63,254 bases of DNA, filler included, from 5 parts of 5 records of this genome joined end to end with filler, not necessarily neighbours in it, one strand, 5' to 3'. Numbered from the whole stretch's first letter, positions 21,358 to 38,855 are shown. Numbers and translations are program-made. Notes: generated by a model from the sequence alone, not told the origin.

Positions 21358-23539
21358 TCTTAACGTATCCTGTGTCCTGTGTGGCAAGATTTCCACCAAA
21401 GAGTGCATTGTAAACATTCTTGTATCCTGGTTCCTGTGTGCTTCCGATTGGTGATTCATGCACCATACGATATTGTTTGAGTCCGTTACCATCAAATATG
21501 TGAAGCCTTGCTTCCATTGAGTTAAAGTACCTTTGCCCGGGTACTGACATGTATCCTGCATCAGTCTGTACCTGTACATAGTAATCAGCTGTGTCAAGTG
21601 TCCATGCGGTCATGGCATAGAATTTGCCGGTTGCCATCTCAACGTCTGATACTATATAGCGTGCACCTGCCTTTTCAGGATCAGGGTGAATTGCTTCAAG
21701 GACATTGGTTGCTTCTTCTTCGGAAGGGGCTGTGAAGAAGGTGGATGCTCCTGGGCGGTTTTCTTCTTCAATGCTGTTTGTACGACCACCAATTCCTTTC
21801 TGGAATGGATTCGCATTTGGAATACGCCTTCCTATTACCTCGATCCAGTGGCCATAGTCCCACCATGACATGACTCCATATGCGGTATCCGGGTACTCAA
21901 AGCTTTCTCCTGCCGCAGGTCGTTCATAGTTTTCATAGTAATCAAGCCCCGGGTCGGGTGTATTGTATCTAAGCCACTGAGTTGCCTCAATCCAGTAACC
22001 ATTTGGCCCTCCTGTTCCCTGGGTCTGTTGCATTGCAAGGGTATAACTTGGGTATATAAGAAGCAGTATTATTAATACGGATGAGATTATGTGCATTGCC
22101 TTAATGTTTTTAGCACTGAATGTTTTATCTTTTACACCAGCAATCAGATTGTTCCATCCGGAAAGCTCAAGGACCTTAATTCCAATCCACGCACTGAGAA
22201 TTGCAGCATTCACTGAATAATAGTATGCAAAGCGGTTTTGTTGGAGCATAGCCCAGATGATCATCAGTGTCCATACAACAAGAAACATATTTTCAGGCAT
22301 ATTTTTTTGGGTAAATACTTTGTAGGTGAGTATTGCCAGTGCAATAAATGAAATATACCCCATTGCTCCGAAATTGTACCAAATTGGCTGAAGGGAGAAT
22401 TGACCTCCCATGGATAAAAGAGGGGAAGCTTCTGCTATTGTGAGGCCACCACCCGTTCGCATAAAAAAACTGAATACACTTGTTATGAGGGAGTAAGCAG
22501 ATTCTGATATCAACTTAGCAATTCCAACTCCTATTACAAAAATGATGGAAATCGCAAGAGGATAATATGCTTTTTTTATTCCTTTTTTGTCCATGATTGT
22601 TGACATCAAACTCAGAATCGGGAATGCAATTATTCCTGCAACCAGACCTTTAATTGCCAGTGGTTTTGTACTTCCGATATATGGTGTTAGAATGACCATT
22701 ATAAGTGCAACAGCAAAAATAATCATCCCCGAGATGGCCAGGTAATCATTGGACCTTTTGTGCATGTGGTCGACACAAAATTGTATGGTTATGTATACTC
22801 CGATAACAAAGCTAAAGAATATAGCACCAATCCATGCAAGTGAGTATGCTCCAAGTGCCAATCCTGTTAACAACATGTAAGGAAGTACTTTTTTAAAGGT
22901 GGAATAGTCCTTATTTTTGATCATTTCAAATGTAATTTCGTGCTCATTTGCTTTTTTCAGCATTATTATCAGGAACATTGCTATGAGCGTTGTGAGCAAT
23001 GTTTCAGCAATATGGTGGTCGTTGAATCCGATCATAGATCGTGATAGGATCTGTCCTGGTGCTATCGCTATGAGAAAAGCTGCCAATAATGCTGCATTAT
23101 TTCCAAAAAGGTTCTTTGTGACAAAGTATGTAGGAATAATGACAAGTGCACCCAAAATGACTGGGTTATATGCGCAAAATGTATTGATCAATTCCTGACT
23201 TGGATTACCAAGTCCTATTATCCATATCATGGTTGAGAGAAAATAATCAAACAGTGGGGCAAAGACCTGGTTTCCACCATTTGGATATTGGGTGTAAGCA
23301 TCAAACCATAGCATTTTTGGATAATTGTGGACTATCGATTCTACATTTCTTAAATGGTACCAAGGGTCATTCCCGCCAAAACGTACAAACGTGTCAGAAA
23401 TGAACACGCCAGCTTTTGGTATTGTTCTTAGATAAATGGATACAAGCAGTGAGAGGAGAATCCCTCCCAGATATATTAACTTGCCCCGGGATTTTGTAGT
23501 TGTTTTGTCTTCAGTGGTCATTTGCTTACTCTCTCTCAT
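21358..23539 (-). CDS. aglB: Archaeal oligosaccharyltransferase AglB (STT3), 3' end truncated
   Basis: GNDPWYHLR, DHHIAE, TIAEA, QNRFAYY, WWDYG, NPFQ, DVEMATGKFYAM; multi-TM N-terminus. Confidence 0.95.
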
Positions 23540-23591: not shown

Positions 23592-24731
23592 TTATTTATC
23601 GTTTGTTGAATTCAGTTCGTATCTTGCATCTTCCACAGCTTCCCACGAGCCTCCGGTTGGGATGATAAATGAAAAATTCATGATAAGTTGGGTTGTAACA
23701 AAAGACGATGCTATTCCCCCTATCTTTGGAATAACAAGTAATGCAAGCAGTGCTAAGTACAGAGGGTTGCTGATGAGTACAAGAGGATATAGAAGAACTA
23801 AGATCAGAACAATAAGCGGGGAAACAATGTGTGTAAGCAGTGCATATGGATATATTATGCTTCCGAACTTTCCTTTTCCAAGAAGCTTAAGGTTATTTAA
23901 GTAGACTCTCCTCAGACCATTGATCCTCTTCATCTTCTGAATGGTACGGCCTTTTAAAGTGAGTGGAACACGTTCGTATACAACAGCTTCTTTATCGTAA
24001 ACAACCCTGTATCCCAGTCTGATTACCTTAAACAGCATATCAGAATCATCTGCATATGCATTCGGATTTATTTTTATCTTATGTAACAGTTCGGTTCTGA
24101 AAGCCATTAACGGACCGTTGCATACAGAAACAGATGAGATATTGCTTTCTCCCTGCCTCCACACATCAAAATAGAATCTATAGGAATCTTCATGTGATTT
24201 GGATAATCTCGTTCTATCAGATACGATCACTATTTTCCCCGTTGCTCCACCGATATCAGGGTCAGAAAAGTTCTTTGTAATTTGAAGGAGGGCATCTTCT
24301 TTTAGCAATGCATCGGCATCGGTTATTACTGTAATATCTCTGTTGATTCTTGAAAAGATCCAGTTCAATCCTCTTGCCTTTCCTTTTCCACCATCATTTT
24401 TGATCACAGTTGCTTTTAGTAAGATTTCATTTATTGTTTTGCTTGCAACCTCTTCTGAACTGTCCGTGGAATAATCGTCCAGTAATATGATATCCAATTT
24501 GTCTTCAGGGTAATTAATATTGGATGTATTTTTTATCTTCTCCCCGATAACCTTCTCTTCATTGTACATTGGTATTACAAATGTGACCGTTGGAAGATCA
24601 TCATTTGCAGGGAGTTTCTCTCCTTTTCTGGAATATACATACATGATCAATGTATAAGAGGCAAAAAGAATGATCTCAAGAACTAATAACAGATTCCAGA
24701 CCAACACCAGACTACTCATATTTAGTAACAT
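23592..24731 (-). CDS. GT2 glycosyltransferase with flanking TM helices
   Basis: IPMYNEE, DDYSTD, GKARGLN, TDAD, ADD; QxxRW degenerate (QKMKRI). Confidence 0.88.
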   Translation of the reverse strand: MLLNMSSLVLVWNLLLVLEIILFASYTLIMYVYSRKGEKLPANDDLPTVTFVIPMYNEEKVIGEKIKNTSNINYPEDKLDIILLDDYSTDSSEEVASKTINEILLKATVIKNDGGKGKARGLNWIFSRINRDITVITDADALLKEDALLQITKNFSDPDIGGATGKIVIVSDRTRLSKSHEDSYRFYFDVWRQGESNISSVSVCNGPLMAFRTELLHKIKINPNAYADDSDMLFKVIRLGYRVVYDKEAVVYERVPLTLKGRTIQKMKRINGLRRVYLNNLKLLGKGKFGSIIYPYALLTHIVSPLIVLILVLLYPLVLISNPLYLALLALLVIPKIGGIASSFVTTQLIMNFSFIIPTGGSWEAVEDARYELNSTNDK

Positions 24732-24810: not shown

Positions 24811-26280
24811 TCATAAAATATGAAGTTTCCATTTAATCTTTCTTATTAAGTATGCTGTATTGAATATTATTTTTGATAACCAACTTTTTACAAGAAGTTT
24901 GGATTTCAATCTTTGAATGTGAGGGTTTTTCAGGTATATTCCCATGAATGTTCCATGCCTTACTGACTCTGGTTTGTAATATACATATTTTTGACCATAG
25001 GATTTCTGCCAGTATGCAAATTTAATTGCGCCAGTCATGTTCATTGGCTCAAGTCTCTGATCAATGAGGTCTATCAGTTCATTTTTGTTCTCAGGGATAT
25101 AGCAACTTTCCATTTCCTCATAAAGTGCCCTGCCGATGAGGATAACTGGCTTCCCCCAAAATGTACTTTCAATACCCATTGTTGAACCGAATGTTATTAT
25201 CTTTTCACAAGCTTCCATTAATTCATAGGAATGAATTTTAGAATCTGCTGGAATAATGTGCAGATTCCGGGCTCTCAGTTCATTCAATTCTCTGGTTTGT
25301 GTGTTTTTCAGGCCTTTGAGATTGGGATGAATCCGTAGATAGAACATTATATTTTCATCAAAGTCTGTAGCAATCAGGTCTTTCATTGCAGCTGTCTGAT
25401 TTTGATACAGTTGGTTCTTCCACCCTGTAATGGCTTCAAATTCATCCTGGGATGATATATATACTGCAATATTTCTTTTTGAAGGGTCAAATCCTTCAGG
25501 TAAATTGCCTTTGACCTGTGATTTAGTAAAGGAGTACCAGCTCTGGTCTTTACCGCCTCTGCGTTCTTCAAACCACTTTGTGGCAATTTCATTCTTTTTC
25601 ACCTCATCTGGTTCATTATCCCAGTATTCTATAATCTGCTTTTTCTGGTATTCGATATCATGGGGATATGTATCTTCAGTTAATGAATAACTGTTCAGTA
25701 CTCCGGCCCTTTCATGGACATATGTTTTTATTTTCATGTCCTGTGCAGCTCTTAACGCTGGTCTTAATGGTGCATATCTTCCATTGAACAGATAGAATAC
25801 ATCGGGTTCTATTTTCTGAAGATGATGTTTGGTTGCTCTATAAACGGCTATTGCCATTAAGAGGTTCTTTTTTACAAATGGTTTGTATTGTATTACGTTA
25901 GGACTAGGTTCACGCACCATGCTGATAAGTGAGGAGGCAACTGCCATTCCAACATCGATTCCATCAACTTCAAAGTTCTTTAGTTCTTCCATGGTTAAAA
26001 AATCAGGTGTATCAACATCTTTAGTAAACCTACTCAGAGCAAGATCATGTCGATTTTCTTCCGGGAGTTTTATGATGCCTAATCCTTTATCTCTTCGGGA
26101 TTTACACAGAAAGCATGTGAGCTTGATGTGGTTTGGATTTGGTTCACAAGCAGGTAAATCTCCAGAACACTGTATAATGTGTACCTCATCCCCTGCTTCA
26201 ATGTGCTTGGTGGCTATTTCAAGATCTGTTGCAAGATGGGGTACCCAATCTGCAAAAGGCATGTAGATAAGGATTTTCAT
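24811..26280 (-). CDS. Capsule-biosynthesis-like (KpsS-like) putative glycosyltransferase
   Basis: LFNGRY, HERAG, LRIHPN, SYELM...ITFGSTMGIES.FWGKPVI; N-terminal Cys cluster; directly downstream of pseF. Confidence 0.55.
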   Translation of the reverse strand: MKILIYMPFADWVPHLATDLEIATKHIEAGDEVHIIQCSGDLPACEPNPNHIKLTCFLCKSRRDKGLGIIKLPEENRHDLALSRFTKDVDTPDFLTMEELKNFEVDGIDVGMAVASSLISMVREPSPNVIQYKPFVKKNLLMAIAVYRATKHHLQKIEPDVFYLFNGRYAPLRPALRAAQDMKIKTYVHERAGVLNSYSLTEDTYPHDIEYQKKQIIEYWDNEPDEVKKNEIATKWFEERRGGKDQSWYSFTKSQVKGNLPEGFDPSKRNIAVYISSQDEFEAITGWKNQLYQNQTAAMKDLIATDFDENIMFYLRIHPNLKGLKNTQTRELNELRARNLHIIPADSKIHSYELMEACEKIITFGSTMGIESTFWGKPVILIGRALYEEMESCYIPENKNELIDLIDQRLEPMNMTGAIKFAYWQKSYGQKYVYYKPESVRHGTFMGIYLKNPHIQRLKSKLLVKSWLSKIIFNTAYLIRKIKWKLHIL

Positions 26281-26381
26281 ATTGACCTCTTACAATTAAG
26301 AATATCATAGTATATATATCTCTTATATTATGTATATATCATTATAGAAAACAAAAAGCAGAAGGTTAATCGGAATATACT

Positions 26382-27092
26382 TTAGTAACAATTCTGTTCT
26401 TTAGCTCTCAGTAATTTGTATTTCATTTCAGCGATTTTCCAGTCTTCTTCATTATCGATGTCCTGAACTTCCGACTCCGGCAAAATGATTGGGACTGTAT
26501 GCTCAGCGAAAAGCTTCATTTGATTTAGCAGGCTTTCTGTTTTCATACAATAGAACTGTCCACAATCATGATATGTTGGTGTCAAATCCTGCGATCGCTT
26601 TTCATAGTTTTGAGGCCAGAGCATTACTGCTCTGCTATTTTCTATCTTTAATGATCTTTGTATAGGATAACTATAGCATGTAACAGGTAGTACGCAATCA
26701 GCATCGGTTTTTTTAAGAAGTGCCATTGCTTCTTTAAGCCTTTCAGGCAAAACGAAAGGGGCTGTCGGGTAGACGCAACAAAGGTAATCATAGTGTTTTC
26801 CATCTTTTTTGTATTCCAGTATAACTTCTTTTAGAACATCGGCAGTGGTTGCAAAATCATTAGAGTTACTCTCTGATCTTAAAAATGGAATCTTTGCTCC
26901 ATACGATGCTGCAGTTTTTGCAATTTCCTCGTCATCTGTGGAAACCATTATTTCGTCAAAGCAGCCACATTCCAGTGCAGCATCAATTGAGTATTTTATT
27001 ATTGGCTGTCCGCAAAAAGATTTAATATTCTTTCGTGGTATCCTTTTACTTCCGCCTCTTGCAGGAATAATTGCTAAACAGGTTGGGTTAAT
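26382..27092 (-). CDS. pseF: Pseudaminic-acid-type CMP-nonulosonate cytidylyltransferase (apparent ATT start)
   Basis: Frame extends 48 codons upstream of the ORF-track start and contains AIIPARGGSKRIPRKNIK; also YPTAPF, RSQDL, YHDCGQFY, VQDIDNEEDW. Confidence 0.88.
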   Translation of the reverse strand: MNPTCLAIIPARGGSKRIPRKNIKSFCGQPIIKYSIDAALECGCFDEIMVSTDDEEIAKTAASYGAKIPFLRSESNSNDFATTADVLKEVILEYKKDGKHYDYLCCVYPTAPFVLPERLKEAMALLKKTDADCVLPVTCYSYPIQRSLKIENSRAVMLWPQNYEKRSQDLTPTYHDCGQFYCMKTESLLNQMKLFAEHTVPIILPESEVQDIDNEEDWKIAEMKYKLLRAKEQNCY

Positions 27093-27115
27093 TTCAATCT
27101 ACCTCTTCGATGATA

Positions 27116-27646
27116 TTATTTTTTTAATTCATTATCAAGAATACTATAATATAACGAGTCATGCCAATTGTCTTCAGACCAATGTGTTTGCCTGTGACGT
27201 CCTTCAAGTTTGAATCCAAGTTTTTCAAAAAAGTTAGTTTTTAAATTATCAAAGTCATAGATTTCGGCCCATAGTCTGTGTAATCCCAGTTCTCCAAAGG
27301 CATAGCTAGCCATTGTATTTCCTGCATCAGGTGCATATTTTTCGTCAATATACAGTTCATCAGCTCCGATATATATTGAAAAATCCGCATTTTTGTTGAT
27401 CCAGTCTATATAGCACAGTCCGCATGCTCCCAGCAACCGTTTTGTTTCCAGTTCCACTATGGAGAACATGATGGTTTTTGGATCTTTCATTACAACTTCT
27501 TCAAACCAGAAATTCTGGTTTTCCATGCTCAATTCGCGATATTCTCTGAAAAAACGTCTGAATTCCGGTCTGTTGCGGTATTCCATCAATAATGGTAAGT
27601 CTGAACGTTCAATTGCACGGAGTCCTGTAAATTTACCTCTTAACAT
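27116..27646 (-). CDS. GNAT (RimL/PseH-like) acetyltransferase
   Basis: LRAIERSDL, GACGLCYIDW.NKNA, AFGELGLHRLWAEIY, LGFKLEG. Confidence 0.85.
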   Translation of the reverse strand: MLRGKFTGLRAIERSDLPLLMEYRNRPEFRRFFREYRELSMENQNFWFEEVVMKDPKTIMFSIVELETKRLLGACGLCYIDWINKNADFSIYIGADELYIDEKYAPDAGNTMASYAFGELGLHRLWAEIYDFDNLKTNFFEKLGFKLEGRHRQTHWSEDNWHDSLYYSILDNELKK

Positions 27647-28758
27647 AGTAAGTCCTCTTCAATGTCTTTTTCAAAAAGAGCATCTCCTGCTAACTTTGGA
27701 GATTTCAGTTTTTTTCCGACAACCTTTTCTATATTATAAGGTTCAATGGCACCTTTTGGAGCAGGACGAAGAGATTTAAGATTGTCTCTATTAATCTGTT
27801 CTCCTGTTTTCATATCACGTGCCAACCTTAAGCAACGACGTTGAACTATTGCAGTATCTCTTTCATTTTGTTCAATCCGCTTTGTTCCGTCACCTAACGA
27901 GTTCTCAAGCTCACGACTACGTTCTACCATCTCTTTCCAGGTTTGAGGATTCATAGAAAACGCATGATCCGGTCCGACTCTGCTATTGTCATCGGTGAAA
28001 TGTTTTTCAATAACTCTGGCCCCAAGAGTAATGGCTCCAAGAACCGTGGCATGTAGTGGTGTATGATCTGAAAGGCCAATGACCATATTAGGATACTTGG
28101 TAGCAAATGTTTTGAGTACATTGAGATTAATGTATTGAAAATTCTCAAGACTTCCTGTGTAGTTTGTATTACACTGCAAAAGCACAAGTTGGGAATTGTG
28201 TTTCAGGACAGCTTCAACAGCTCTTTCCACATCGCTTATAGTAGATGCTCCGGTGGCCATTATTACAGGCTTTCCCTTTTTTGCAATCGTTTCAATAAAT
28301 TCAATCCAGGTTATGTCTCCAGATCCTATTTTATACGCCGGAATATACTTGTCAAGTAATTCCACAGCTTCTGCATCATATGGTGTGGTAAGGAAATCGA
28401 TTTTTGCTTCCTTGGCGGTTTTTGCCAGTTCTGTGGTCCAGTCCCTGTTGCATTCATACTGTTCATAGATTTCAAAAATGGTTTTGTCCCATGAGGCCTG
28501 ATGACTCATTTTGCTGCCAAGATGCTTAAAGCCATAGTCACTAACAATTTTTCCGGCTTTAAAATGCTGAAATTTGACTGCATCTGCTCCAGCATCTTTT
28601 GCAAGCCATATCAACTGTTTGGCACGTTCAATGTCACCATCATGGTTTGATGCAACATCTGCTATAAAATATGTAGGTGCAGAAATTGATATTTCCCTTT
28701 TTCCAATATATATCACATCATCATATCTCATTTTTGACATCTCCTTCATATTCTTCAA
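27640..28758 (-). CDS. Nonulosonic acid synthase, NeuB/PseI family with C-terminal SAF domain
   Basis: FIADVASNHDGD, AGADAVKFQ, YKIGSGD, GLSDHT, IEKHFT, GPDHAFS; true start may be a few codons downstream. Confidence 0.93.
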   Translation of the reverse strand: MKNMKEMSKMRYDDVIYIGKREISISAPTYFIADVASNHDGDIERAKQLIWLAKDAGADAVKFQHFKAGKIVSDYGFKHLGSKMSHQASWDKTIFEIYEQYECNRDWTTELAKTAKEAKIDFLTTPYDAEAVELLDKYIPAYKIGSGDITWIEFIETIAKKGKPVIMATGASTISDVERAVEAVLKHNSQLVLLQCNTNYTGSLENFQYINLNVLKTFATKYPNMVIGLSDHTPLHATVLGAITLGARVIEKHFTDDNSRVGPDHAFSMNPQTWKEMVERSRELENSLGDGTKRIEQNERDTAIVQRRCLRLARDMKTGEQINRDNLKSLRPAPKGAIEPYNIEKVVGKKLKSPKLAGDALFEKDIEEDLLC

Positions 28759-29605
28759 GAATACATGTAATTACATCATCCTGTGTAGGTAGTTTGTATC
28801 CCAGTATGCTCTCTGCCATTTCAACATCTAACCCATTACTCTCTGCTCTGATTATTTCTCCTCCTACTTCTATTAATCTGCCTGTGGCCGAGTTTGTCAG
28901 TTCAACACCCATTTTTTTCGCAAGAGCTGTTATGAACACCTTTTTGCTGGATACTTCCCTGCTTGCCAGGTTTAATACGCCTTTATGGTTTTTTTCGATA
29001 ATATCAAGCAGTGAAGATGAAAATTGTTTGACATGGATACTTGACGTAAAATAATCTTCAAAAAGAGTCATAGGAGTATTATTTTTTATATTTTCAATAA
29101 CCCATTCCACAAATGTAGATGTTCCTTCTTTATTGCGGAAGCCGACAATATTTGTACGGACTACCAGTGAATTAGGACAGGTCAATGCAAATTTCTCTGC
29201 AGCATATTTAGTTCTTGCATACTCATTTAGTAACCTGACAGGTTCATCTTCATTGTGCTTCAGGTTTCCATCACTTGTATAATAATGGTCAGTTGATATC
29301 TGGATGAAATAAAGATTATTTCTGGTTGCAATTTCGGAAATGATAGATGCAGGACGCGCGTTTACAATGTATGCATATTCTGGATTTTCTTCACATTCAT
29401 TCAGATTTACCAGTGCTGCGCAGTTAATTATGATATCAGGTTTTATCGATGTAATATTTTTTTCCAATGATTTTTTGTCAGCAACATCACAACTAATGTC
29501 TGTTCCACTGCGTGCTATTCCCACAACGTCCATACCACGCTCTTTTATTTCAAAAATCAGTGCCTGTCCCAGCAGACCAGTAGAACCTATGACTAAAGCT
29601 TTCAT
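28721..29605 (-). CDS. RmlD-like NDP-4-keto-6-deoxysugar reductase (extended SDR)
   Basis: GSTGLLG, INCAALV, ISTD, YARTK (YxxxK), VVRTN. Confidence 0.85.
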   Translation of the reverse strand: MKALVIGSTGLLGQALIFEIKERGMDVVGIARSGTDISCDVADKKSLEKNITSIKPDIIINCAALVNLNECEENPEYAYIVNARPASIISEIATRNNLYFIQISTDHYYTSDGNLKHNEDEPVRLLNEYARTKYAAEKFALTCPNSLVVRTNIVGFRNKEGTSTFVEWVIENIKNNTPMTLFEDYFTSSIHVKQFSSSLLDIIEKNHKGVLNLASREVSSKKVFITALAKKMGVELTNSATGRLIEVGGEIIRAESNGLDVEMAESILGYKLPTQDDVITCILEEYEGDVKNEI

Positions 29606-29751
29606 GCCTCTCTCTCTTTTACTTTATTAGTATTCATCCAATCTGTATGTCACAATAGTTCTGAATATTGATGGCCAGTTATTAACTCAATATATTTCAA
29701 CTCTTCAGGACATTAGTAATTTAATCGGTTTTTTGTCGTGACAAGAAATCA

Positions 29752-30150
29752 TTACACAACCTTATGTTGAATAGTATCTTCTTTATCTTCTGGATTTTTA
29801 CTGAACACTATCAAACTTGCCTCTTTATCAGATACATTAGTAACAGCATGAGCAACAAAAGGTGGTATATGAATCACTTCATACATGTCTGATTCACAAT
29901 CCATCATGATTTCTTCAAATTTACCGGAAATGACATCTTTTAACGATAATTTAATTTTTCCAGCTGCTAATGCAATCCACTCATCTTTCTTTTTATGATA
30001 ATGATTTGCTCTTGTTCTCTTTGGTTCAATTGATACTACATAGCTGTGTATGCAATTAAAAGGCTCATCATCATAGTTCATTGAGATTACTTCAGAAAGC
30101 CATCCATCATCTCTTTTATGCTTGAAGCGCGTTAGTTTTTCACATAACAT
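29752..30150 (-). CDS. Cupin (WxcM/CapF-C-like) sugar epimerase or isomerase
   Basis: DDGWLSE, RANHYHKKKDEW, IPPFVAHAV. Confidence 0.8.
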   Translation of the reverse strand: MLCEKLTRFKHKRDDGWLSEVISMNYDDEPFNCIHSYVVSIEPKRTRANHYHKKKDEWIALAAGKIKLSLKDVISGKFEEIMMDCESDMYEVIHIPPFVAHAVTNVSDKEASLIVFSKNPEDKEDTIQHKVV

Positions 30151-30156
30151 TGCATA

Positions 30157-31140
30157 TCATATCATTTTTTCAAAATCATCTTTAGTAAGCCATTCATCAT
30201 TAATGTCACTGGAGTAGCGATGGTTATCTGGAAGACTTTTTCCAGAATTTATAGTTTGCTTTTTCCAGAATGAGAATTCTGGTTCAATTATGAAGTAGTC
30301 AGAGAATTCTTTTGCATGTCTGGCTTCATCTTCTGTTATCATTATCTCGTGCAACTTTTCTCCAGGTCTGATTCCTGTAAATTCCTTTTTAGCTTCTGGA
30401 GCAATAGCTTCTGCAAGATCAGTTATTTTCATGCTAGGTATTTTTGGAACAAATACTTCCCCGCCATTCATTCTTTGAATAGAAGCAAGCACAAAATGAA
30501 CTCCCTGATCAAGTGTCAACCAAAAACGTGTCATTCTTTCGTCGGTTATTGTAAGGACACCTTCTTTTTTCTGCTCTTTAAAGAGAGGAATTACGCTTCC
30601 ACGGCTCCCAATTACATTTCCATATCTGACACAACTGAATTTTGTTCTTCTTTTACCAGTATAGGTGTTCCCCTGAATGAATAATTTCTCAGCAACCATT
30701 TTAGTTGCACCATAAAGATTTACAGGATGAACTGCTTTATCTGTACTTATTGCCATTACTCTTTCTACAGAATTGTCTATTGCAGCATCAATAACGTTTA
30801 CAGAGCCGTCTATATTTGTCTTGATAGCTTCTATTGGGTTATATTCGCATGCAGGCACCTGCTTTAATGCAGCAGCATGTACTACAATGTCAACTCCGTT
30901 CATTGCGCGATAAAGTCTTTCCTTGTCCCTTACATCACCTATAAGAAATCGTAATCTGTTGTCGTTGAATTCCTGCTGCATTTTGTATTGATTATATTCT
31001 CCTCTTGAATATATTCTTAAACTATTAGGATTGTGTTCCTTCAAAATAATTTCTGTAAATTTCTTTCCAAAAGAACCTGTTCCACCGGTAAGTAGAATAT
31101 TTTTCCCTTCAAATAAAGATCCGTCGATTATATCTTGCAT
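30157..31140 (-). CDS. pseB: UDP-N-acetylglucosamine 4,6-dehydratase (inverting)
   Basis: TGGTGSFG, HAAALKQVPACEYNP, STDKAV.PVNLYGATK, RYGNV.GSRGSV, MTRFW, GIRPGEKLHE. Confidence 0.92.
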   Translation of the reverse strand: MQDIIDGSLFEGKNILLTGGTGSFGKKFTEIILKEHNPNSLRIYSRGEYNQYKMQQEFNDNRLRFLIGDVRDKERLYRAMNGVDIVVHAAALKQVPACEYNPIEAIKTNIDGSVNVIDAAIDNSVERVMAISTDKAVHPVNLYGATKMVAEKLFIQGNTYTGKRRTKFSCVRYGNVIGSRGSVIPLFKEQKKEGVLTITDERMTRFWLTLDQGVHFVLASIQRMNGGEVFVPKIPSMKITDLAEAIAPEAKKEFTGIRPGEKLHEIMITEDEARHAKEFSDYFIIEPEFSFWKKQTINSGKSLPDNHRYSSDINDEWLTKDDFEKMI

Positions 31141-31316
31141 GTATCTACCAACTTAAGGTTATGAATATGTATGCAGATACTATGGTTATTTTATTATATA
31201 AAGTTCATTTGCATATTTATCTCGTATTTATTAAATGAATATTGGAACTACGTATTTTTATATGACTACAGCATTAAATAAAATCAAAATTTCTCTCTTA
31301 TGAGGTCTGATATAAA

Positions 31317-32240
31317 GTGTATGCAAAAATTGCAATTACGATTCGTTCTTTTTCTTCTATTGACTTAGTATCAGAATTACTTCAAGACCAGGGGACAGTT
31401 GTTTATGTAAATAAGTCTGGAAAGCGTCTTGAGGAAGATGAATTATGTCACATATTAAAGGATGTCAATGGAGTAATTGCCGGAACTGAAAAATTTAGTT
31501 CAAGAGTTTTTAATTCCTCACCTAACTTGCGCGTTGTATCTCGTGTAGGAGTAGGGATTGATAGCATTGATCAGAAGGCTGCTCAAAAAAATGACATATC
31601 TATATTGAATACTCCTGAAGCACCTGCGCTGGCAGTTGCAGAACATACCCTTGCGCTAACATTTGCAGTAATTAAAAGAATTGCGATGTATAACGAGAAT
31701 ATGCAAAAAGACGATTATACTATTGAATCTGGTTTATTGCTATCAGGTAGAACTATAGGAGTAATTGGTCTAGGAAGAGTGGGAAGAAGGGTTGCTGAAA
31801 TGTTTGAGGTGTTAGGTTGTAATATTCTCTTTTATGACCCTTTTTTACCTGATATTTTCATTTCAAACTGGAAACGTGCTACTTCACTTGACGATGTTTT
31901 ACAAAATGTAGATATTCTTACTTTGCATGTACCTTCTCAATCTGATGGCAAGCCTTTACTTGGTAACAAAGAATTCGATTTATGCAAACATGGTATGGTT
32001 CTTATTAATACTTCGCGAGGCTCACTTGTAGATGAGGATTCACTTGTAAAAGCAATTAAAAGTGGAATAATTTTGGGAGCAGGCTTAGATGTTTTTCCGG
32101 TTGAGCCATACAAAGGAAAACTCTTGGATTTTCCCCAGATAGTTACGACACCACATGTTGCTTCTAATACTGTGGAATCCAGACAACAAATGGAAAAGGA
32201 AGCGATTAATAATTTACTTATTAAATTGAGGGATCTGTGA
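31317..32240 (+). CDS. D-isomer-specific 2-hydroxyacid (phosphoglycerate-like) dehydrogenase
   Basis: SRVGVGIDSID, AVAEHT, GLGRVG, INTSRG, LDVF..EP, TPHVAS; no ACT domain. Confidence 0.88.
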   Translation: MYAKIAITIRSFSSIDLVSELLQDQGTVVYVNKSGKRLEEDELCHILKDVNGVIAGTEKFSSRVFNSSPNLRVVSRVGVGIDSIDQKAAQKNDISILNTPEAPALAVAEHTLALTFAVIKRIAMYNENMQKDDYTIESGLLLSGRTIGVIGLGRVGRRVAEMFEVLGCNILFYDPFLPDIFISNWKRATSLDDVLQNVDILTLHVPSQSDGKPLLGNKEFDLCKHGMVLINTSRGSLVDEDSLVKAIKSGIILGAGLDVFPVEPYKGKLLDFPQIVTTPHVASNTVESRQQMEKEAINNLLIKLRDL

Positions 32241-33151
32241 TGAAAAAAGCATTAGTTACAGGTGGAAATGGATTTTTGGGTCATCATATTGTAAGGGAAT
32301 TGTCTAATAGGGGAATTGAAACGATTGTTTATGATCTTGAAAGATCTTCTCTTATTGATGAAATGAGTGAAAATGCCCAAATCACATTTGTAAAAGGGAA
32401 CATTCTTGATAAAACAAAACTGGACTCTGCTATGGAAAGTTGCGATATTGTTTTCCATACTGCTGCCATTGCAAATCTGGAGGATGCATTACAACATCCA
32501 GTTGAGACAATGGAGGTAAATGTGGTGGGTACTGTTAATTGTCTCGAAGCTGCAAAAAAACATAAAGTTGATAGGTTTGTTTTTGCAAGTTCTGTCTATG
32601 TAGGTGGCAACTGGGGTACTTTTTATAGAATATCGAAACAAACTGGTGAGTCTCTTTGTAAAACATATTCTCGAGAATTTGATCTTGATTTCAGCATAAT
32701 TCGTTATGGAAGTCTTTATGGTAGGGAAGCTAATAATTGGAATTTCCTTTATGGTGTTCTGAAAAATCTATTGCTTAATAAAGAATACACTTACTATGGT
32801 TCTCCTGATTCTTTGCGTGAATATATACACATAGCTGATGCTGCTCGTGAAACTGTTAATATTGCTGCAAATGATGATTTTAGAAACAAAGCAGCATTAA
32901 TAACGGGGCATCAAAGAATGTCTCACAAAGAATTCTTCAATATGATACAGGAAATTCTTGGGCGTGATATCAAAATTTCATTTGAGAACAAAGAAAAAGA
33001 TAGCCATTATAAAATAACTCCTTATTCCTTTGAACCGGATATACCACTCAGGATCAATCTGGCTACTTATATTGACATCAATGAAGGTATCCTTGATTGC
33101 CTGAAAGAGGTGCAGATGGAGATTGAAAATGATAATTACAACAAAAACTGA
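32237..33151 (+). CDS. NAD-dependent epimerase/dehydratase (extended SDR)
   Basis: TGGNGFLG, FHTAA, FASS, YRISK (YxxxK), RYGSLYG, REYIH. Confidence 0.88.
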   Translation: MMKKALVTGGNGFLGHHIVRELSNRGIETIVYDLERSSLIDEMSENAQITFVKGNILDKTKLDSAMESCDIVFHTAAIANLEDALQHPVETMEVNVVGTVNCLEAAKKHKVDRFVFASSVYVGGNWGTFYRISKQTGESLCKTYSREFDLDFSIIRYGSLYGREANNWNFLYGVLKNLLLNKEYTYYGSPDSLREYIHIADAARETVNIAANDDFRNKAALITGHQRMSHKEFFNMIQEILGRDIKISFENKEKDSHYKITPYSFEPDIPLRINLATYIDINEGILDCLKEVQMEIENDNYNKN

Positions 33152-33914
33152 TGATAAACGGAGTCTAAAAAAGAAACTACAGAATAATGTTCTGACGATA
33201 GGTTCATGGATTACAATTGGCAATCCTGCTATCGCCGAGATTATGGCTCAAAGTGGGTTTGACTGGTTGACAGTTGATATGGAACACAGCGCTATTACTT
33301 TAAGTGAGGCACAGCAGTTAGTTCAGGTGATTGAATTATCTGGATGTGTTCCTCTTGTCCGTGTAGGTAGCAATGATCCAAATCTGATTAAACGTGTTAT
33401 GGATGCCGGTTCACATGGTGTTATTGTGCCAATGGTTAATTCTGCAAAAGATGCGGAGGCAGCAGTAAAAGCAGTAAAGTATCCACCTGTAGGCATGCGT
33501 GGTGTTGGTCTTGCAAGAGCTCAGGGATATGGAGTGGACTTTGAGAACTATAAAGATTGGGTTGAACAGGAAAGTATTGTTATAGTTCAGATAGAACACA
33601 TTGAAGCAGTCAGAAATATTGAGGAAATCCTATCAACAGAAGGTGTTGATGGATTTATCATTGGGCCTTATGATTTATCCGGTTCTCTAGGAATGCCAGG
33701 AGAGTTTAGTGAGCCAGAGGTTCTAGAGGCACTTGAAACTGTAAAAAGAGCAGCTAATAAAGTGAATATCATTTCTGGATTCCATGTTGTTCCTCCCGAA
33801 CCTAACCAACTAAAAGAAAAGATTAATGAAGGTTATCGCTTCTTGGCTTATAGTCTTGATTCATTGTTCTTAGCTGAAACCTGTCTCAAGGATTTGGCAG
33901 AAATCAAGAGTTAA
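33129..33914 (+). CDS. HpcH/HpaI-family pyruvate-dependent class II aldolase
   Basis: GFDWLTVDMEHS, PLVRV, KYPP.G.RG.G, QIEH, IGPYDLSGSLG. Confidence 0.92.
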   Translation: MIITTKTDDKRSLKKKLQNNVLTIGSWITIGNPAIAEIMAQSGFDWLTVDMEHSAITLSEAQQLVQVIELSGCVPLVRVGSNDPNLIKRVMDAGSHGVIVPMVNSAKDAEAAVKAVKYPPVGMRGVGLARAQGYGVDFENYKDWVEQESIVIVQIEHIEAVRNIEEILSTEGVDGFIIGPYDLSGSLGMPGEFSEPEVLEALETVKRAANKVNIISGFHVVPPEPNQLKEKINEGYRFLAYSLDSLFLAETCLKDLAEIKS

Positions 33915-33963
33915 AAAAGATTGTTCAAGAACTTTTATTGTCTTGAACTTCTATTTTTTAATG

Positions 33964-35463
33964 TTACATATATTGTTCTCTATATATCTCTGACAACTCT
34001 TCATATACACGGTTTCCTTCTTCATCAAACCTTTCAGCTCTTTCAATCGATGACCACTTTTCCTCTGGCATTTTTACATATAATGGAAATGTTCTCAATA
34101 ATCCATATAGTTCTTCACCTTTGATCTGAGGCATTTTCAGAGAAGACATCATTGAATGTTCCTGTGTAATATGTTCCTCTTTGATGTAACCTTCCTCAAC
34201 ACAAACTTCATGTAATTTTGTTCCCCTGAAAGGTGTGAAAATAAAGATGTTTAGGTCCTTTGCTTCGCAATCACGATTTAACCTGATAGTATCAAATATG
34301 TCTTCTCTTGTTTCCCCTGGCAGGCCTATCATATTGTTCGTGCCGTATTTGATGTCAAGCTCATTCAAAATATGTGTAGCTTTTTTTATGGTTTCATTTG
34401 AGACTTTCCTGTTAAGTACTTCCTGCCGTATCCTTTCATTTCCACTTTCGATTCCTATACTTAAACGGAAATCAAAACCATCCAGTATTTTTAGTTTGTC
34501 ATGGGTGATTGACTCCGGTCTTGTCTGGAAGAAAAATGGAAGATCAATTTCCTTGTATCTTTCCATGAAATCTCTCAGTCTTTTTTCAGGCATTGAAAGG
34601 AAAGATTCAGATGTAAAGTACACAAATTCCAGTCCATACTTCTCTTTTTGGTGTTTCAATTCTTCAAAGACTAACGATACATCCTTAAATCTTAGATATT
34701 TATTATCATACATTTTTCTGTATGATGATGCACAGCAAAATGTACAATTGTATGGGCAGCCTCTGCTGATTTCAATTGGAAGTGTTTTAAAAAGCTTTCC
34801 ACGGTTAGGTCTGTAGAACCTCTTTTCTTCGTAGATGGTAAAGTCTAGAAATGGTAGCTCATCAAGATCAACCAGTTCTCTCATTTGGTTTTTTTTAATT
34901 CCATTTTCAGATTTCAGCCATATGTTGGGAATATCTGAGATGTCTCTTTCCTCTAGCATTTTTTGGCACAATTCTACAATGGATTTTTCCCCTTCACCCA
35001 TACAAATCATATCTATGCAGTCATTAGCAAGCGTATCTTCTGGTGAAAATGAAGGAAAAGCTCCTCCTGCTAATGTCGGTATGTTCTGATCTTTTATCGT
35101 TTCTAATAGTCTCAGTGCAATTTCATATGTAACTTCGGTCATTGTTACAGCAATAAGGTGAGGTTTGTAGCTGTCGACCATTTTTTTGAAGTCCTCATAA
35201 ACATCAGTATCTTTGACTGTTATTCCCACTTCTGACATGTCCCATTTACGAAATTGTAAGAAGTCTGCCCTGATCTCATCACCGCTTTTCTCCTGAGTCC
35301 TGTAGAGTGTAGTGTCAAATAATTGTATGTTGTTGAACCCCGCCTTCTTCAGGCAAGCTGACAGAAGCGATAGGTTTATTGGCATCATGTTCTGCAACAT
35401 CACATTTGGATATACAAAGAGTATCCGAAAGTCGTCTTTATTGTATTCAGTCATAATTATCAC
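33964..35463 (-). CDS. Cobalamin-binding radical SAM enzyme (class B methyltransferase-like)
   Basis: N-terminal B12-binding region (GG.FPS..PE, GEGE); SRGCPYNCTFC (CxxxCxxC); GIESG, MIGLPGET, PFRGT. Confidence 0.9.
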   Translation of the reverse strand: MIIMTEYNKDDFRILFVYPNVMLQNMMPINLSLLSACLKKAGFNNIQLFDTTLYRTQEKSGDEIRADFLQFRKWDMSEVGITVKDTDVYEDFKKMVDSYKPHLIAVTMTEVTYEIALRLLETIKDQNIPTLAGGAFPSFSPEDTLANDCIDMICMGEGEKSIVELCQKMLEERDISDIPNIWLKSENGIKKNQMRELVDLDELPFLDFTIYEEKRFYRPNRGKLFKTLPIEISRGCPYNCTFCCASSYRKMYDNKYLRFKDVSLVFEELKHQKEKYGLEFVYFTSESFLSMPEKRLRDFMERYKEIDLPFFFQTRPESITHDKLKILDGFDFRLSIGIESGNERIRQEVLNRKVSNETIKKATHILNELDIKYGTNNMIGLPGETREDIFDTIRLNRDCEAKDLNIFIFTPFRGTKLHEVCVEEGYIKEEHITQEHSMMSSLKMPQIKGEELYGLLRTFPLYVKMPEEKWSSIERAERFDEEGNRVYEELSEIYREQYM

Positions 35464-35710
35464 ATGATTTCTTCAAGGACTGTCTGTTTTATCGTATCGT
35501 TCATATTTAATTCTGGTCATTACCTATATCTCTGGCTAACGTCTTAATCTTCTGACATGCATATTTGAAGATAGGTATTTATTTGTTAGATTATATTATT
35601 TAACTGAAACCGCTCGATATTGTTGAGGCCTTATGGCATATTTCTCATATCAACTGTTAGATTACAATCATTGAACTTAATAAATTCATCATTCACAAAA
35701 GTGATTATAA

Positions 35711-36409
35711 ATGCCCGACGATTACTCTGTAACTGCGCTGTTGCCAATGAAAGGACACAGTGAACGTGTACCATCAAAAAATACAAGGCTTTTTGGAAAA
35801 GACCCTTTGTTTTTCCATATATTAAGAAGTCTGGAGTCTGCAGAGTTGGTGAGGCAGATTCTGGTTGATACCGACAGTCCTAAAATTAGATCTTTAATAG
35901 AAGAAAACTTTTGTAACGTAGTGATAATTGAACGTCCTGAACATTTGTTGGGCGACAAAGTGCCTATGACTTCTATTATTGAATATGATCTTAATTATGT
36001 TGAAACAAGTCATTTTTTGCAAACACATGCCACGAACCCACTTCTTAGATCTGATACGATAGAAAATGCAATAAAATGTTATTTCGACGGACTGACAAGA
36101 GGTTTTGATTCTGTTATGAGTGTCTCTAAATTCCAAACAAGATTCTACGATCAAAACAAGAACCCTGTGAATCATGACCCTGACACTATGCTTCCTTCTC
36201 AGGATATGCCTCCTTTGTATGAGGACAACTCTAATTTCTATATCATGTCAGTTGAGAACTTTATGAAAGATAAAATACGCGTTGGAAAAAACCCTCTTTT
36301 TGTTGAAGTGCCTAAAATAGAAAGCATAGACATTGATGAACCGGAGGATTTTCTAATTGCTGAAGCAGTATATAAATTTATTTCAAACAAAGGGAACAAT
36401 GGATGTTAA
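35711..36409 (+). CDS. Second acylneuraminate/ulosonate cytidylyltransferase-family protein
   Basis: LLPMKGHSERVPSKN, VDTDS, QTHATNP, SQD, ENS-like DNSNFY, DIDEPEDF. Confidence 0.88.
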   Translation: MPDDYSVTALLPMKGHSERVPSKNTRLFGKDPLFFHILRSLESAELVRQILVDTDSPKIRSLIEENFCNVVIIERPEHLLGDKVPMTSIIEYDLNYVETSHFLQTHATNPLLRSDTIENAIKCYFDGLTRGFDSVMSVSKFQTRFYDQNKNPVNHDPDTMLPSQDMPPLYEDNSNFYIMSVENFMKDKIRVGKNPLFVEVPKIESIDIDEPEDFLIAEAVYKFISNKGNNGC

Positions 36410-36474
36410 TTTATTGGATAATAATTGATTTTGGCTTGTTGTTATCTACACTGGATTGATACATTTTTAGAGGG

Positions 36475-37452
36475 ATGATTATACTAATGGTGGCTTTTGA
36501 GAATTTCAGAATGGTTACAGAAAACATAGAAGGATACAAAGAGTTTAACATTGATCGTAACTGGTACAAGGATAGGAAAAAAGGCCTGTCTGCGGTTATA
36601 AGGTGTTTTGGTGATGAAAGGTGGATTGGTCCATGTATAGAAAGTTGCCTGCCTCTGTTTGATGAAATAGTTGTAGTCATTGTGAAAATAGAAGGTGATA
36701 GGACTGAGGAAATTGTGAGAAACTTCGATTCTCCAAAAATTAAGATTTACAATTATCCCTTTAGTTTAGATCAGGTTGAAGCACCTATTTATAAGAACAG
36801 AATCCAGCAAAAGATTGATTCCCTGTCCGAACTGTTTGTTTCTCCCAATTTTAAGAGAGGTTCGGTTCATACAATAAGCTATCTGACCAATTTCGGCATG
36901 TCAAAGACAACATTTTCCCATGTTACTCCTCAATGGGACGCGGACCACATACTAAGGCCTGAATTTGCAACAGAAGACTTCAAAGAATTTATTCTTTCCA
37001 AAGGTCATATCCGCGTTGCAGGATACAATGTAGTGACGGAAGATTATCAATATCTATCTGAAAGGTCTCCTATTCACAGTAGTCATCCTCGCTTTTATAA
37101 AGCTGATAAGCATTTGTACTTTGCTGGAAATAAGTATCTTCTGGATATTGTTTCATATCGCTCCTCTATAGTTCAGTTGAAAATGCTGGAGAATTATTTC
37201 CTTTTCCCAATCCAACAGATACTGTGCATGAAGAATTTGTTACTTAGAAGGGATGTTTCATATGATGAACCAATCTATTTCCATACCAAGTTCCTTCGTT
37301 CCGACAAAGAAATCGAGCATGATACTCGTTTTTTAAATGAAGAGTATCACAGGCAGTTCAAGGAAAATACTAAAAAAGGGAGAAAAATAGATGTTGAAGT
37401 ACCTGATTTTGCGCTAAAGGTACCTGAGGATTATTTAAGAAAAAACAGTTAA
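36475..37452 (+). CDS. GT-A-fold glycosyltransferase-like protein
   Basis: GLSAVIRC..DERWI..CIESCLPLFDEIVVV, DRTEEI, WDADH (DxD). Confidence 0.65.
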   Translation: MIILMVAFENFRMVTENIEGYKEFNIDRNWYKDRKKGLSAVIRCFGDERWIGPCIESCLPLFDEIVVVIVKIEGDRTEEIVRNFDSPKIKIYNYPFSLDQVEAPIYKNRIQQKIDSLSELFVSPNFKRGSVHTISYLTNFGMSKTTFSHVTPQWDADHILRPEFATEDFKEFILSKGHIRVAGYNVVTEDYQYLSERSPIHSSHPRFYKADKHLYFAGNKYLLDIVSYRSSIVQLKMLENYFLFPIQQILCMKNLLLRRDVSYDEPIYFHTKFLRSDKEIEHDTRFLNEEYHRQFKENTKKGRKIDVEVPDFALKVPEDYLRKNS

Positions 37453-37504
37453 AATATGATTAAAGATAATAATTGTTAATTTTTATTTATTACAAGGTAT
37501 TCAA

Positions 37505-38835: not shown

Positions 38836-38855
38836 TGAAGCAGAATAGTACTGAT

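Follow-up and report, generated by a model that had tools for sequence, protein, structure and literature searches.

A predicted mosaic operon for a nonulosonic acid in a methanogenic archaeon, with a reductase-synthase cassette in place of the PseC-PseH-PseI block

We asked how an operon that starts with the first enzyme of the CMP-pseudaminic acid pathway could supply a nonulosonic acid, a surface sugar resembling sialic acid, when the aminotransferase and the hydrolase of that pathway are missing from its surroundings. The analyzed window has a length of 63,254 nt and is composed of five unrelated contigs with N runs between them. The operon lies on the contig at 21358–39684 (18.3 kb), which comes from a methane-producing archaeon of the Methanosarcinaceae and was called archaeal because AglB/STT3 is encoded on it. 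On the minus strand we observed, in this order, genes for PseB, a small cupin, an RmlD-like SDR, a NeuB-family synthase (NeuB'), a GNAT (GNAT'), a PseF (PseF'), a GT-B transferase, a GT2 glycosyltransferase and AglB, with all nine frames intact and with gaps, calculated from the coordinates, of 6, 146, −38, −7, 17, 101, 79 and 52 nt. The 17 nt between GNAT' and PseF' apply to a PseF' frame read from 27098 (167 nt with the listed ATG start); on this reading all gaps stay below 150 nt, and on the same proviso the gene coordinates bear out the tight minus-strand run described in an earlier note. That note had also reported neither aminotransferase nor nucleotide-sugar hydrolase on the 18-kb contig, which we could confirm: DegT/PseC, PseG, NeuC/Epimerase_2 and a TIM-barrel protein (X) known from related loci were found neither by Pfam and NCBIfam scans of the 18.3-kb contig nor by our own HMM, phmmer and jackhmmer searches of its six frames. 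RmlA, RmlB and RmlC were not found on this contig either. The absence of PseC, PseG and NeuC refers to the 18.3 kb only, and an unlinked PseC or PseG may be present elsewhere in the parent genome.

PseB (327 aa; 30157–31140, minus strand) was assigned to the CMP-pseudaminic acid pathway as a 5-inverting UDP-GlcNAc 4,6-dehydratase, as it scored 518.9 bits with TIGR03589 (cut-off 407.75), and it shares 94% amino acid identity with its counterpart in L093/G112. The small cupin (132 aa; 29752–30150, minus strand; PF14667 46.4 bits, PF05523 34.1 bits) contains four residues, H50, H52, E57 and H101, that are invariant across 30 homologues. In its AlphaFold model (pLDDT 86.2) it comes closest to the cupin domain of CapF, to FdtA/QdtA 3,4-ketoisomerases and to RmlC-type epimerases, and the cupin is predicted to belong to a class that epimerizes or isomerizes NDP-4-keto-6-deoxy sugars. 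It had been proposed that cupin and reductase together stand in for PseC and PseG. For the reductase this holds in so far as it occupies the position of PseC, with PseC and PseG missing; the cupin replaces neither, as it adjoins true PseC, lying between PseB and PseC in each of 14 Methanosarcinaceae genomes and in 26 of the 32 metagenome loci that could be evaluated. In archaeal clusters of the canonical order PseB-cupin-PseC-PseH-PseI it regularly accompanies PseB. Nor is it tied to the reductase, being found in none of the 80 cassette loci described below. A ‘split CapF’ formed by cupin and SDR as a co-evolved pair was rejected, the two having separate evolutionary histories; because the cupin is missing from all 80 cassette loci, yet sits beside true PseC in the family, their pairing is explained as a product of a cassette swap.

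The SDR (294 aa; 28721–29605, minus strand) scored 130 bits with the RmlD family PF04321 (cut-off 27) and 135 bits with TIGR01214, below the 224 required there. Its best solved relatives are RmlD enzymes, which are 4-ketoreductases, and 15 orthologues share the GxxGxxG motif, S104/T105 and Y129-x3-K133. We predict from these features an NAD(P)H-dependent 4-ketoreductase that acts on the product of PseB, or of PseB and cupin. CapE/CapF (WbjB/WbjC, FnlA/FnlB) is the route to UDP-L-PneNAc/L-FucNAc, and WbvB/WbvR follows a related logic. This route and the window have in common a 5-inverting UDP-GlcNAc 4,6-dehydratase, a cupin similar to the C-terminal part of CapF and an SDR 4-reductase. However, the dehydratase of the window is PseB and not FnlA (256.5 bits with the FnlA model, cut-off 730), a 2-epimerase is absent, and the reductase is RmlD-like, not fused to the cupin and not matched by the WbcJ/CapF model. 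The WbcJ model matched the window cupin only (34 bits against 500). Membership in the UDP-L-PneNAc pathway was rejected on the FnlA score, the restriction of the WbcJ match to the cupin and the missing 2-epimerase.

NeuB' (372 aa; 27640–28758, minus strand; PF03102 245.7 bits) consists of a NeuB domain and a SAF domain. It stayed below the cut-off of the NeuB equivalog TIGR03569 (285.6 versus 399.65 bits) as well as that of the PseI model TIGR03586 (251.8 versus 340.25 bits), as did all 31 cassette synthases tested, and it is equidistant from solved PseI, SpsE and NeuB (155–159 bits). In our tree NeuB' is split from PseI by a branch with an SH-aLRT of 99, and the protein of the window falls inside this clade; by sequence, it is placed in a distinct clade of nonulosonic acid synthases. 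Membership in the N-acetylneuraminate pathway was rejected, with TIGR03569 below cut-off and no Epimerase_2/NeuC on the contig. GNAT' (176 aa; 27116–27646, minus strand; PF13302 63 bits) is a PseH-like acyltransferase that matches the PseH model from end to end with 59.4 bits, less than the cut-off of 93.1 and than the 161–170 bits of true PseH in sister loci; among solved structures, SpeG and AAC(6') are nearest to it. The CMP-transferase PseF' (238 aa from an ATT at 27098; 26382–27098, minus strand) is listed as 26382–26948 with an ATG start and 188 aa, and this ATG-started part exceeds the cut-off of the PseF model TIGR03584 (219.7 versus 205.7 bits). Upstream the frame is open to 27098, including the PARGGSKR loop; the ATT follows immediately after a TAG and has GAGG just upstream. 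In L001, the closest relative, the start is a TTG where the window has the TAG, so that the canonical start is lost and the last step may therefore be impaired.

By blastn the nucleotides 29724–39682 align with L093 (83.8%) and 26381–29644 with L001 (81.1%), and the break marks the 146-nt spacer at 29606–29751, the largest of the run, as the putative junction where an imported cassette was recombined onto the PseB-cupin head. Compared with L001, amino acid identity is 80% for SDR, 83% for NeuB', 82% for GNAT' and 81% for PseF'. Canonical Methanosarcinaceae clusters (PseB-cupin-PseC-...-PseH-PseI-TIM barrel X; G112, G109 and others) share with the window PseB (80–94% amino acid identity), the cupin (61–88%), the GT-B/GT2 genes and the upstream operon, and the N-glycosylation gene surroundings of the window are those of sister genomes with a canonical Pse set. 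In contrast to the window, they contain true PseC (463–474 bits), true PseI (510–522 bits) and, in 3 of 5 loci scanned, true PseH with the scores given above; at the place of PseC, PseH and PseI the window carries SDR, NeuB', GNAT' and PseF'. The cupin-SDR junction is bridged as well in a relative of about 90% identity from an independent wastewater run (X3, record 14), where 134 other letters replace 144, and a 59.7-kb contig from the probable source run spans it too. Among 37 metagenome loci whose cupin homologue reaches 41% identity or more, none has a close relative of this SDR following the cupin; the SDR-like matches in L128 and L132 are only 24–33% identical. This pattern is that of a mosaic, in which a native PseB-cupin head is joined to an imported 3.3-kb cassette in place of the PseC...PseH-PseI block.

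In our definition of the cassette, the gene immediately after that of an RmlD-like SDR encodes a NeuB' from the distinct clade, GNAT' comes next, and PseB is nearby; all four components are present in the window. This cassette is conserved in many bacterial phyla and several archaea. NeuB' follows directly after SDR in 73 of the 75 evaluable loci (those with at least 1.2 kb downstream), across many phyla and often with overlapping stop and start, and GNAT' after NeuB' in 47 of 67 evaluable loci; among the loci evaluable for GNAT', it never occurs together with TIM-barrel X. A PseB-like gene is present in 71 of 80 cassette loci, and in bacteria the order seen most often is a true PseB with the SDR immediately after it. 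Like the canonical CMP-pseudaminic pathway of Campylobacter and Helicobacter (PseB, PseC, PseH, PseG, PseI, PseF), the window has a true PseB first, a PseF-class cytidylyltransferase last, a PEP-dependent NeuB-family synthase and a small GNAT. It differs in that PseC and PseG are missing and synthase and GNAT score below the PseI and PseH cut-offs, and the cassette differs in that the synthase is invariably accompanied by an RmlD-like reductase. Of the 23 cassette-bearing genomes only 2 have PseC above its cut-off, and the same number holds for PseG and for NeuC. An enzyme that releases UDP could be recognized neither in the window nor in most cassette loci.

That the 4-keto sugar is reduced instead of aminated, as suggested earlier, is the most economical reading of the SDR-NeuB' pairing, of the rarity of PseC, PseG and NeuC and of locus L077, which consists of exactly PseB-SDR-NeuB'-PseF-PseG without aminotransferase or GNAT. 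We see an even chance that the window, as a mosaic N-glycan operon, leads by such a reduction to a CMP-activated 5-acylamino-3,5,9-trideoxy nonulosonic acid with a 7-hydroxyl or 7-O-acyl group. PseB, by family membership, would form UDP-2-acetamido-2,6-dideoxy-beta-L-arabino-hexos-4-ulose, which the cupin, judged by its fold, may epimerize or isomerize next to the keto group. The SDR would reduce C4 to the hydroxyl, as its RmlD homology and the missing aminotransferase suggest, and some further enzyme would remove UDP before NeuB' joins the free 2-acetamido-2,6-dideoxy-L-hexose to PEP, forming a 5-acetamido-3,5,9-trideoxy-non-2-ulosonic acid that carries oxygen at C7. GNAT' might, speculatively, acylate this oxygen, and PseF' would make the CMP-sugar. 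The cassette of SDR, NeuB', GNAT' and PseF' would work without PseC. The GT-B protein (489 aa; 24811–26280, minus strand; PF05159 26 bits) reached 34 bits, below 200, with the family of BFO_1060, which excerpts of PMC5420450 present as a homologue of Tannerella transferases for Pse/Leg derivatives; it is probably a nonulosonic acid transferase and would add the sugar to the lipid-linked glycan. Downstream of it lie the GT2 glycosyltransferase (379 aa; 23592–24731, minus strand; PF13641, PF00535) and AglB (21358–23539, minus strand, cut by the contig end; PF02516 99.5 bits, PF22627 83.5 bits), the oligosaccharyltransferase that would transfer the glycan.

A chemical precedent for the proposed product may be seen, by analogy, in Fusobacterium nucleatum ATCC 25586. 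According to the portions consulted of PMC5595891 and PMC13014188 this strain contains fusaminic acid, 5-acetimidoylamino-3,5,9-trideoxy-L-glycero-L-gluco-non-2-ulosonic acid, and in the latter (PMC13014188) its O-chain combines L-6dAltNAc with a 5-acetimidoylamino-3,5,9-trideoxy-non-2-ulosonic acid. Reduction of the PseB product at C4 would be expected to give L-6dAltNAc. In the literature searched, fusaminic acid was the sole natural 7-hydroxy, 9-deoxy nonulosonic acid, and no biosynthetic genes for it were found there; it is known from its structure only. Counting against the route proposed here are the retention of a PseH-like GNAT in 47 of 67 loci, which is easier to reconcile with an amino than with a hydroxyl acceptor, the DegT-family genes within 10 kb of 28 of the 80 cassette loci, and the lack of a recognizable UDP-releasing enzyme in the window and most cassette loci.

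Unlikely, though the best surviving alternative, is an ordinary diamino acid of the Pse5Ac7Ac type, for which an aminotransferase encoded elsewhere would aminate C4, GNAT' would be the equivalent of PseH, and the SDR would have another role, for example an epimerization or a redox-assisted UDP release replacing PseG. The PseH-like character and frequent retention of GNAT' agree with this, as does the presence of the same GT-B transferase (71–85% amino acid identity) in canonical and cassette loci alike. Some DegT-family gene is found in 22 of the 23 cassette genomes, and in the loci L043 and L060 one immediately precedes the SDR; however, the only DegT gene at E ≤ 1e-20 in G001, the closest cassette genome, is part of a WbpD/E/B/A-like operon that serves another sugar (C3 amination), the adjacent DegTs of L054, L064 and L057 are RfbH dehydrases (696–747 bits), and L077 lacks both DegT and GNAT. 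PseG and NeuC are both missing in 20 of 23 genomes, therefore some cassette protein would have to release the sugar. Against the SDR in this role, its nearest relatives are 4-ketoreductases, and it coexists with true PseG in L077, L072 and L078, so that it is no PseG substitute there; L078 also has true PseI, without any DegT-family (PseC-type) gene.

It is very unlikely that the run serves two products, with PseB, cupin and SDR making UDP-2-acetamido-2,6-dideoxy-L-hexose for the N-glycan by CapE/CapF or WbvB/WbvR logic, and NeuB', GNAT' and PseF' making a nonulosonic acid from another precursor. The match of the cupin to the CapF domain, the L-6dAltNAc residue reported in the cited portions on F. 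nucleatum and the slightly higher score of NeuB' with the NeuB than with the PseI model would suit such a division, but the SDR goes with NeuB' and not with the cupin (73/75 versus 0/80 loci), NeuC, needed for ManNAc-type precursors, is over cut-off in only 2 of 23 genomes, PseF' exceeds the PseF cut-off, and minimal five-gene clusters adjoin flagellin and Maf genes without other sugar genes (L050, L079). That a recent recombination left an operon that has ceased to yield an activated sugar, its PseC and PseH removed by the swap and the PseF' start destroyed, has the TAG, the junction within the largest spacer and the rarity of the arrangement (0/37) in its favor, yet appears very unlikely given nine intact frames, a PseF' open over its full length from an ATT with GAGG just upstream, the junction retained in the independent relative and true PseB followed by SDR as the commonest bacterial order.

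Returning to reduction at C4 as the preferred reading, we tentatively suggest, as a possibility of rather less than even weight, that the SDR-NeuB' cassette is the missing route to fusaminic-type 7-hydroxy (or 7-O-acyl), 9-deoxy acids. This would add a fourth pathway to Neu, Leg and Pse, one that gene transfer would have carried across more than a dozen phyla and into methanogens. The enzyme releasing UDP would be orthologous to neither PseG nor NeuC; in some lineages it would be TIM barrel X, which is AP_endonuc_2-like, and in others it might be GNAT'. The cassette is widespread yet unstudied in bacteria and archaea. If this proposal is true, methanogens would diversify their N-glycan cap simply by replacing PseC-PseH-PseI with the cassette while the PseB-cupin head in front stays fixed.

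We could confirm the minus-strand operon on the contig at 21358–39684 by Pfam and NCBIfam scores as a run of PseB, cupin, RmlD-like SDR, NeuB-family synthase, GNAT, PseF and transferase, and the absence of PseC and PseG described in the earlier note held as well: no DegT/PseC, PseG or NeuC was found on this contig, which covers only 18.3 kb of the parent organism. PseB (30157–31140, minus strand) scores 518.9 bits with TIGR03589 (cut-off 407.75) and is followed by a cupin of 132 aa (29752–30150, minus) that matches PF14667 and PF05523. The SDR (28721–29605, minus) reaches 130 bits with PF04321 and 135 bits with the rmlD model, which is less than 224. The synthase (27640–28758, minus) lies below both relevant cut-offs (NeuB 285.6 versus 399.65 bits; PseI 251.8 versus 340.25 bits), and the GNAT (27116–27646, minus) scores 59.4 bits with the PseH model, below 93.1. 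PseF, with a frame open to 27098 on the minus strand, exceeds its threshold (TIGR03584, 219.7 bits, above 205.7). The same minus-strand run continues with a GT-B protein (489 aa), a GT2 and, at the end of the contig, the AglB/STT3 oligosaccharyltransferase; from PseB to AglB the gaps are 6, 146, −38, −7, 17, 101, 79 and 52 nt. With this AglB/STT3 gene the contig is archaeal. The other four contigs of the 63-kb window, in which N runs join the five, lie at 1–21257 and 39785–63254; they are unrelated and bacterial in look. Among their genes are two-component systems and a photolyase, FeoB plus a copper ATPase, parts of a Nap-type nitrate reductase, and a TonB receptor together with MacB/HlyD and a sigma-54 regulator.

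Homologues of the SDR were observed with 80% identity in Methanosarcinaceae and with more than 50% in Paenibacillus, Desulfosporosinus, cyanobacteria and others; a look-up of the SDR in a protein atlas returned only generic RmlD-family clusters and no informative taxa. When one genome per species was searched with a profile, 114 stretches matched, and the best 80 loci were retained. Within these 80, the synthase directly follows the SDR in 73 of the 75 loci that extend 1.2 kb or more downstream, and the 73 synthases are 52–83% identical to that of the window. In the two exceptions, L072 and L078, a true PseG adjoins the SDR, and L078 also has a true PseI. The cassette of SDR, synthase (NeuB') and GNAT' was seen in gut Lachnospiraceae, Paenibacillus, Geobacter, cyanobacteria, methanogens and others, and in bacteria flagellin and Maf genes are often its neighbours. 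We also recognized a second variant (L001, L003, L004, L010–L013, L016, L017, L024, L025 and L027), with a dehydratase 43–50% identical to the PseB of the window (323–341 bits, under the PseB cut-off) and an extra GalE/LegB-like SDR of 313–326 aa, so that it may yield a different epimer.

The cassette synthases form a group of their own. All 31 tested lie under both the NeuB and the PseI cut-offs, and all 17 PseI proteins of canonical loci lie over the PseI cut-off. The synthase of the window lies equally far from solved PseI, SpsE and NeuB (155–159 bits). In a quick maximum-likelihood tree (SH-aLRT support only; built on rows of 300–420 aa) a long branch with a support of 99 parts 63 cassette synthases from the 17 PseI proteins and one other homologue, and the Methanosarcinales synthases form one small clade amid bacterial ones. 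The tree, which has no bona fide NeuB or LegI references, separates NeuB' from PseI.

Family membership shows a PseB, a PseF-class transferase, a PEP-dependent synthase of NeuB fold and an SDR of RmlD fold with its catalytic residues. The SDR would reduce C4 of the product of PseB, or of PseB together with the cupin, and the freed 2-acetamido-2,6-dideoxy-L-hexose would be joined with PEP to a 5-acetamido-3,5,9-trideoxy acid with oxygen at C7. More speculatively, GNAT' could O-acylate the new hydroxyl and so create a near-isostere of the 7-acetamido group, which would fit the nearly identical GT-B transferase in canonical and cassette loci. The O-chain of Fusobacterium nucleatum 25586 contains L-6dAltNAc together with trideoxy fusaminic acid, according to PMC13014188 and the title of a reference in PMC5595891, and this pair is a chemical precedent for the predicted product. 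By hand calculation the free acids would have monoisotopic masses of 293.111 (7-OH, C11H19NO8) and 335.122 (7-O-acetyl, C13H21NO9), against 334.138 for Pse5Ac7Ac (C13H22N2O8), and the latter two can be told apart by high-resolution MS. The proposal of the earlier note that reduction replaces amination is plausible and now has comparative genomics behind it; the product itself is putative.

The strongest alternative is that an aminotransferase is encoded elsewhere and the SDR has another role. Among 23 cassette genomes PseC was over its cut-off in two and PseG in the same two, both at a separate canonical locus; NeuC was over its cut-off in two of the 23, and neither PseG nor NeuC was found in 20. 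Most of these genomes are drafts or MAGs and the absence of the three genes is therefore not a proof. A DegT-family gene lies within 10 kb of the SDR in 28 of the 80 loci (best 80 of 114). Several of those scanned are RfbH dehydrases, or long DegTs several kb off that are grouped with GFO oxidoreductases; only in L043 and L060 is the gene immediately upstream of the SDR PseC/LegC-like. The DegTs adjoining the cassette in L054, L064 and L057 were rejected as PseC, being of the RfbH type. In G001, the closest cassette-bearing genome, a single DegT was found at E ≤ 1e−20, in an operon for sugars of 2,3-diacetamido-glucuronate type with an LbH acetyltransferase, an archaeal UDP-GlcNAc 3-dehydrogenase and an NDP-sugar dehydrogenase. 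This operon (L189, G001:C51:246000–259000) and its counterpart in G004 (L190, G004:C15:33000–46000) account for the best PseC-like match in both genomes. In L077, a Selenomonas MAG, the locus reads PseB–SDR–NeuB'–PseF–PseG with no other relevant gene, which by gene content is exactly the set expected of a pathway that reduces in place of aminating. The co-occurrence of SDR and PseG in L077, L072 and L078 also weakens the idea that the SDR substitutes for PseG. DegT fragments of about 106–130 aa directly upstream of the SDR in two bacterial loci (L005:6364–6702 and L066:9591–9989) may be leftovers of a displaced aminotransferase. At L078:12633–14684 we observed a 683-aa fusion of a CTP_transf_3 cytidylyltransferase with a class-III aminotransferase next to the true PseI; this cluster includes PseG as well as the RmlD-like SDR and lacks a DegT-family (PseC-type) gene.

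A PseB-like gene is present in 71 and PseF in 28 of the 80 cassette loci (best 80 of 114), and the cupin is present in none of them. The earlier note put the cupin, paired with the SDR, in the place of PseC/PseG; this was wrong, as its partner is PseB, and a co-evolved split CapF made of cupin and SDR was rejected because none of the 80 cassette loci has the cupin. The cupin family is small and comes chiefly from methanogens. Of 177 Methanosarcinaceae genomes, 14 have it directly after a PseB that shares 80–94% amino acid identity with that of the window. Five of these 14 loci were scanned with NCBIfam: a true PseC (463–474 bits) directly follows the cupin, a true PseI (513–520 bits) lies farther on, and three of the five have a true PseH (161–170 bits); in the other nine PseI is also over its cut-off (510–522 bits). 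Among metagenome contigs 32 loci were evaluable (L109–L144; five with less than 500 nt downstream excluded), and in 26 of these the cupin is followed by a PseC homologue. PseB–cupin–PseC is the standing order of archaeal pseudaminic-acid clusters, seen in all 14 genomes (L093–L106) and in those 26 metagenome loci. The best matches of the structural model of the cupin (pLDDT 86.2) are the CapF cupin domain, FdtA/QdtA ketoisomerases and epimerases of the RmlC type. These all act beside the keto group of NDP-4-keto-6-deoxy sugars, and an HxH...E...H set is invariant in the homologues of the cupin. The cupin thus plausibly edits the PseB product, as a partner of PseB.

For the release of UDP we considered a family of AP_endonuc_2-like TIM-barrel proteins of 250–280 aa, here called X (for example L093:15504–16289, L101:5505–6263, L106:15029–15778, L045:11845–12693 and L022:9175–9990, among others), which is absent from the window. 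X adjoins NeuB' in 12 of the 80 cassette loci (best 80 of 114) and directly follows the true PseI in 9 of the 14 canonical clusters of Methanosarcinaceae; in five near-complete genomes of archaea with canonical clusters, no PseG was over its cut-off. Among 67 evaluable cassette loci, 47 have GNAT' and 11 have X, and none has both; PseG is found in L077 and, farther from the cassette, in L070, and eight loci lack all three. Such a distribution would be consistent with different solutions to a single step, and X is a candidate non-orthologous UDP-sugar hydrolase. Since 10 X loci form a single clade in the quick tree, few events lie behind the exclusion of GNAT' and X.

The locus in the window is a mosaic of a G112-like head and an L001-like cassette. 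The region 29724–39682, which spans the cupin, PseB and the entire operon upstream, is colinear with G112, a genome with the canonical locus L093, at 83.8% nucleotide identity, and the region 26381–29644, from PseF' to the SDR, is colinear with the Methanococcoides MAG locus L001 at 81.1%. The junction lies within the 146-nt spacer between cupin and SDR, and the GT-B and GT2 genes resemble both relatives. In place of the cassette, canonical G112 has PseC, a second cytidylyltransferase, an aldo-keto reductase, a FabG-like SDR, PseH, PseI and a TIM-barrel protein. We do not take the mosaic as an assembly artefact, as far as this can be tested, because the same stretch occurs with zero differences in a contig of 59,670 nt from the probable source run, and because a different spacer links cupin and SDR in a 624-nt contig, about 90% alike, of an independent wastewater run. 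In the sequencing runs X2–X4 the stretch is covered only in part, at about 90% likeness, and the uncovered parts carry no information. Two further alternatives, both less likely, are that the operon serves two separate products and that the locus is a recombinant in decay. For the latter, at 27096–27101 (minus) a TAG stands where L001, the closest relative, has the PseF start TTG, and the source-run contig has the same TAG, but the PseF frame begins at an ATT directly after it, with GAGG just upstream, and includes the nucleotide-binding loop. The genes at 31317–38835, kept at 66–91% amino acid identity in G112, G103 and G123, encode a D-2-hydroxyacid dehydrogenase, an SDR epimerase, an HpcH/HpaI aldolase, a B12-radical SAM enzyme (minus strand), a second CTP_transf_3 cytidylyltransferase, an unknown protein of 325 aa, a HAD hydrolase and a hydrolase of the cyclase family. 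Together they may provide a pyruvate-aldolase route, either to a further CMP-activated acid sugar or to an acyl side chain.

Nonulosonic acids cap flagellins, S-layers, capsules and LPS and shape motility, phage attack and immune recognition. Genome surveys bin NeuB homologues as Neu, Leg or Pse, and to our knowledge these three routes are treated as the complete repertoire. Our comparison of loci shows a coherent fourth group, with a distinct synthase clade that is always paired with an RmlD-like reductase, usually without an aminotransferase or a known UDP-sugar hydrolase. The accessible portions of the literature searched gave no description of the cassette or of fusaminic-acid biosynthesis, and those of PMC7371886, PMC8208679, PMC13317340, PMC5109656, PMC12648312, PMC12940168 and the SugarBase preprint contain no such cassette or fusaminic-acid route. 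The cassette swap in the window is a clear case of archaeal N-glycan diversification. If the products are indeed 7-oxygenated trideoxy acids, this would explain the origin of fusaminic-type sugars, the cassette would provide enzymes with which analogues of Pse and sialic acid could be made chemoenzymatically, and the annotation of cassette loci as 'pseudaminic' or 'sialic' acid clusters would be corrected.
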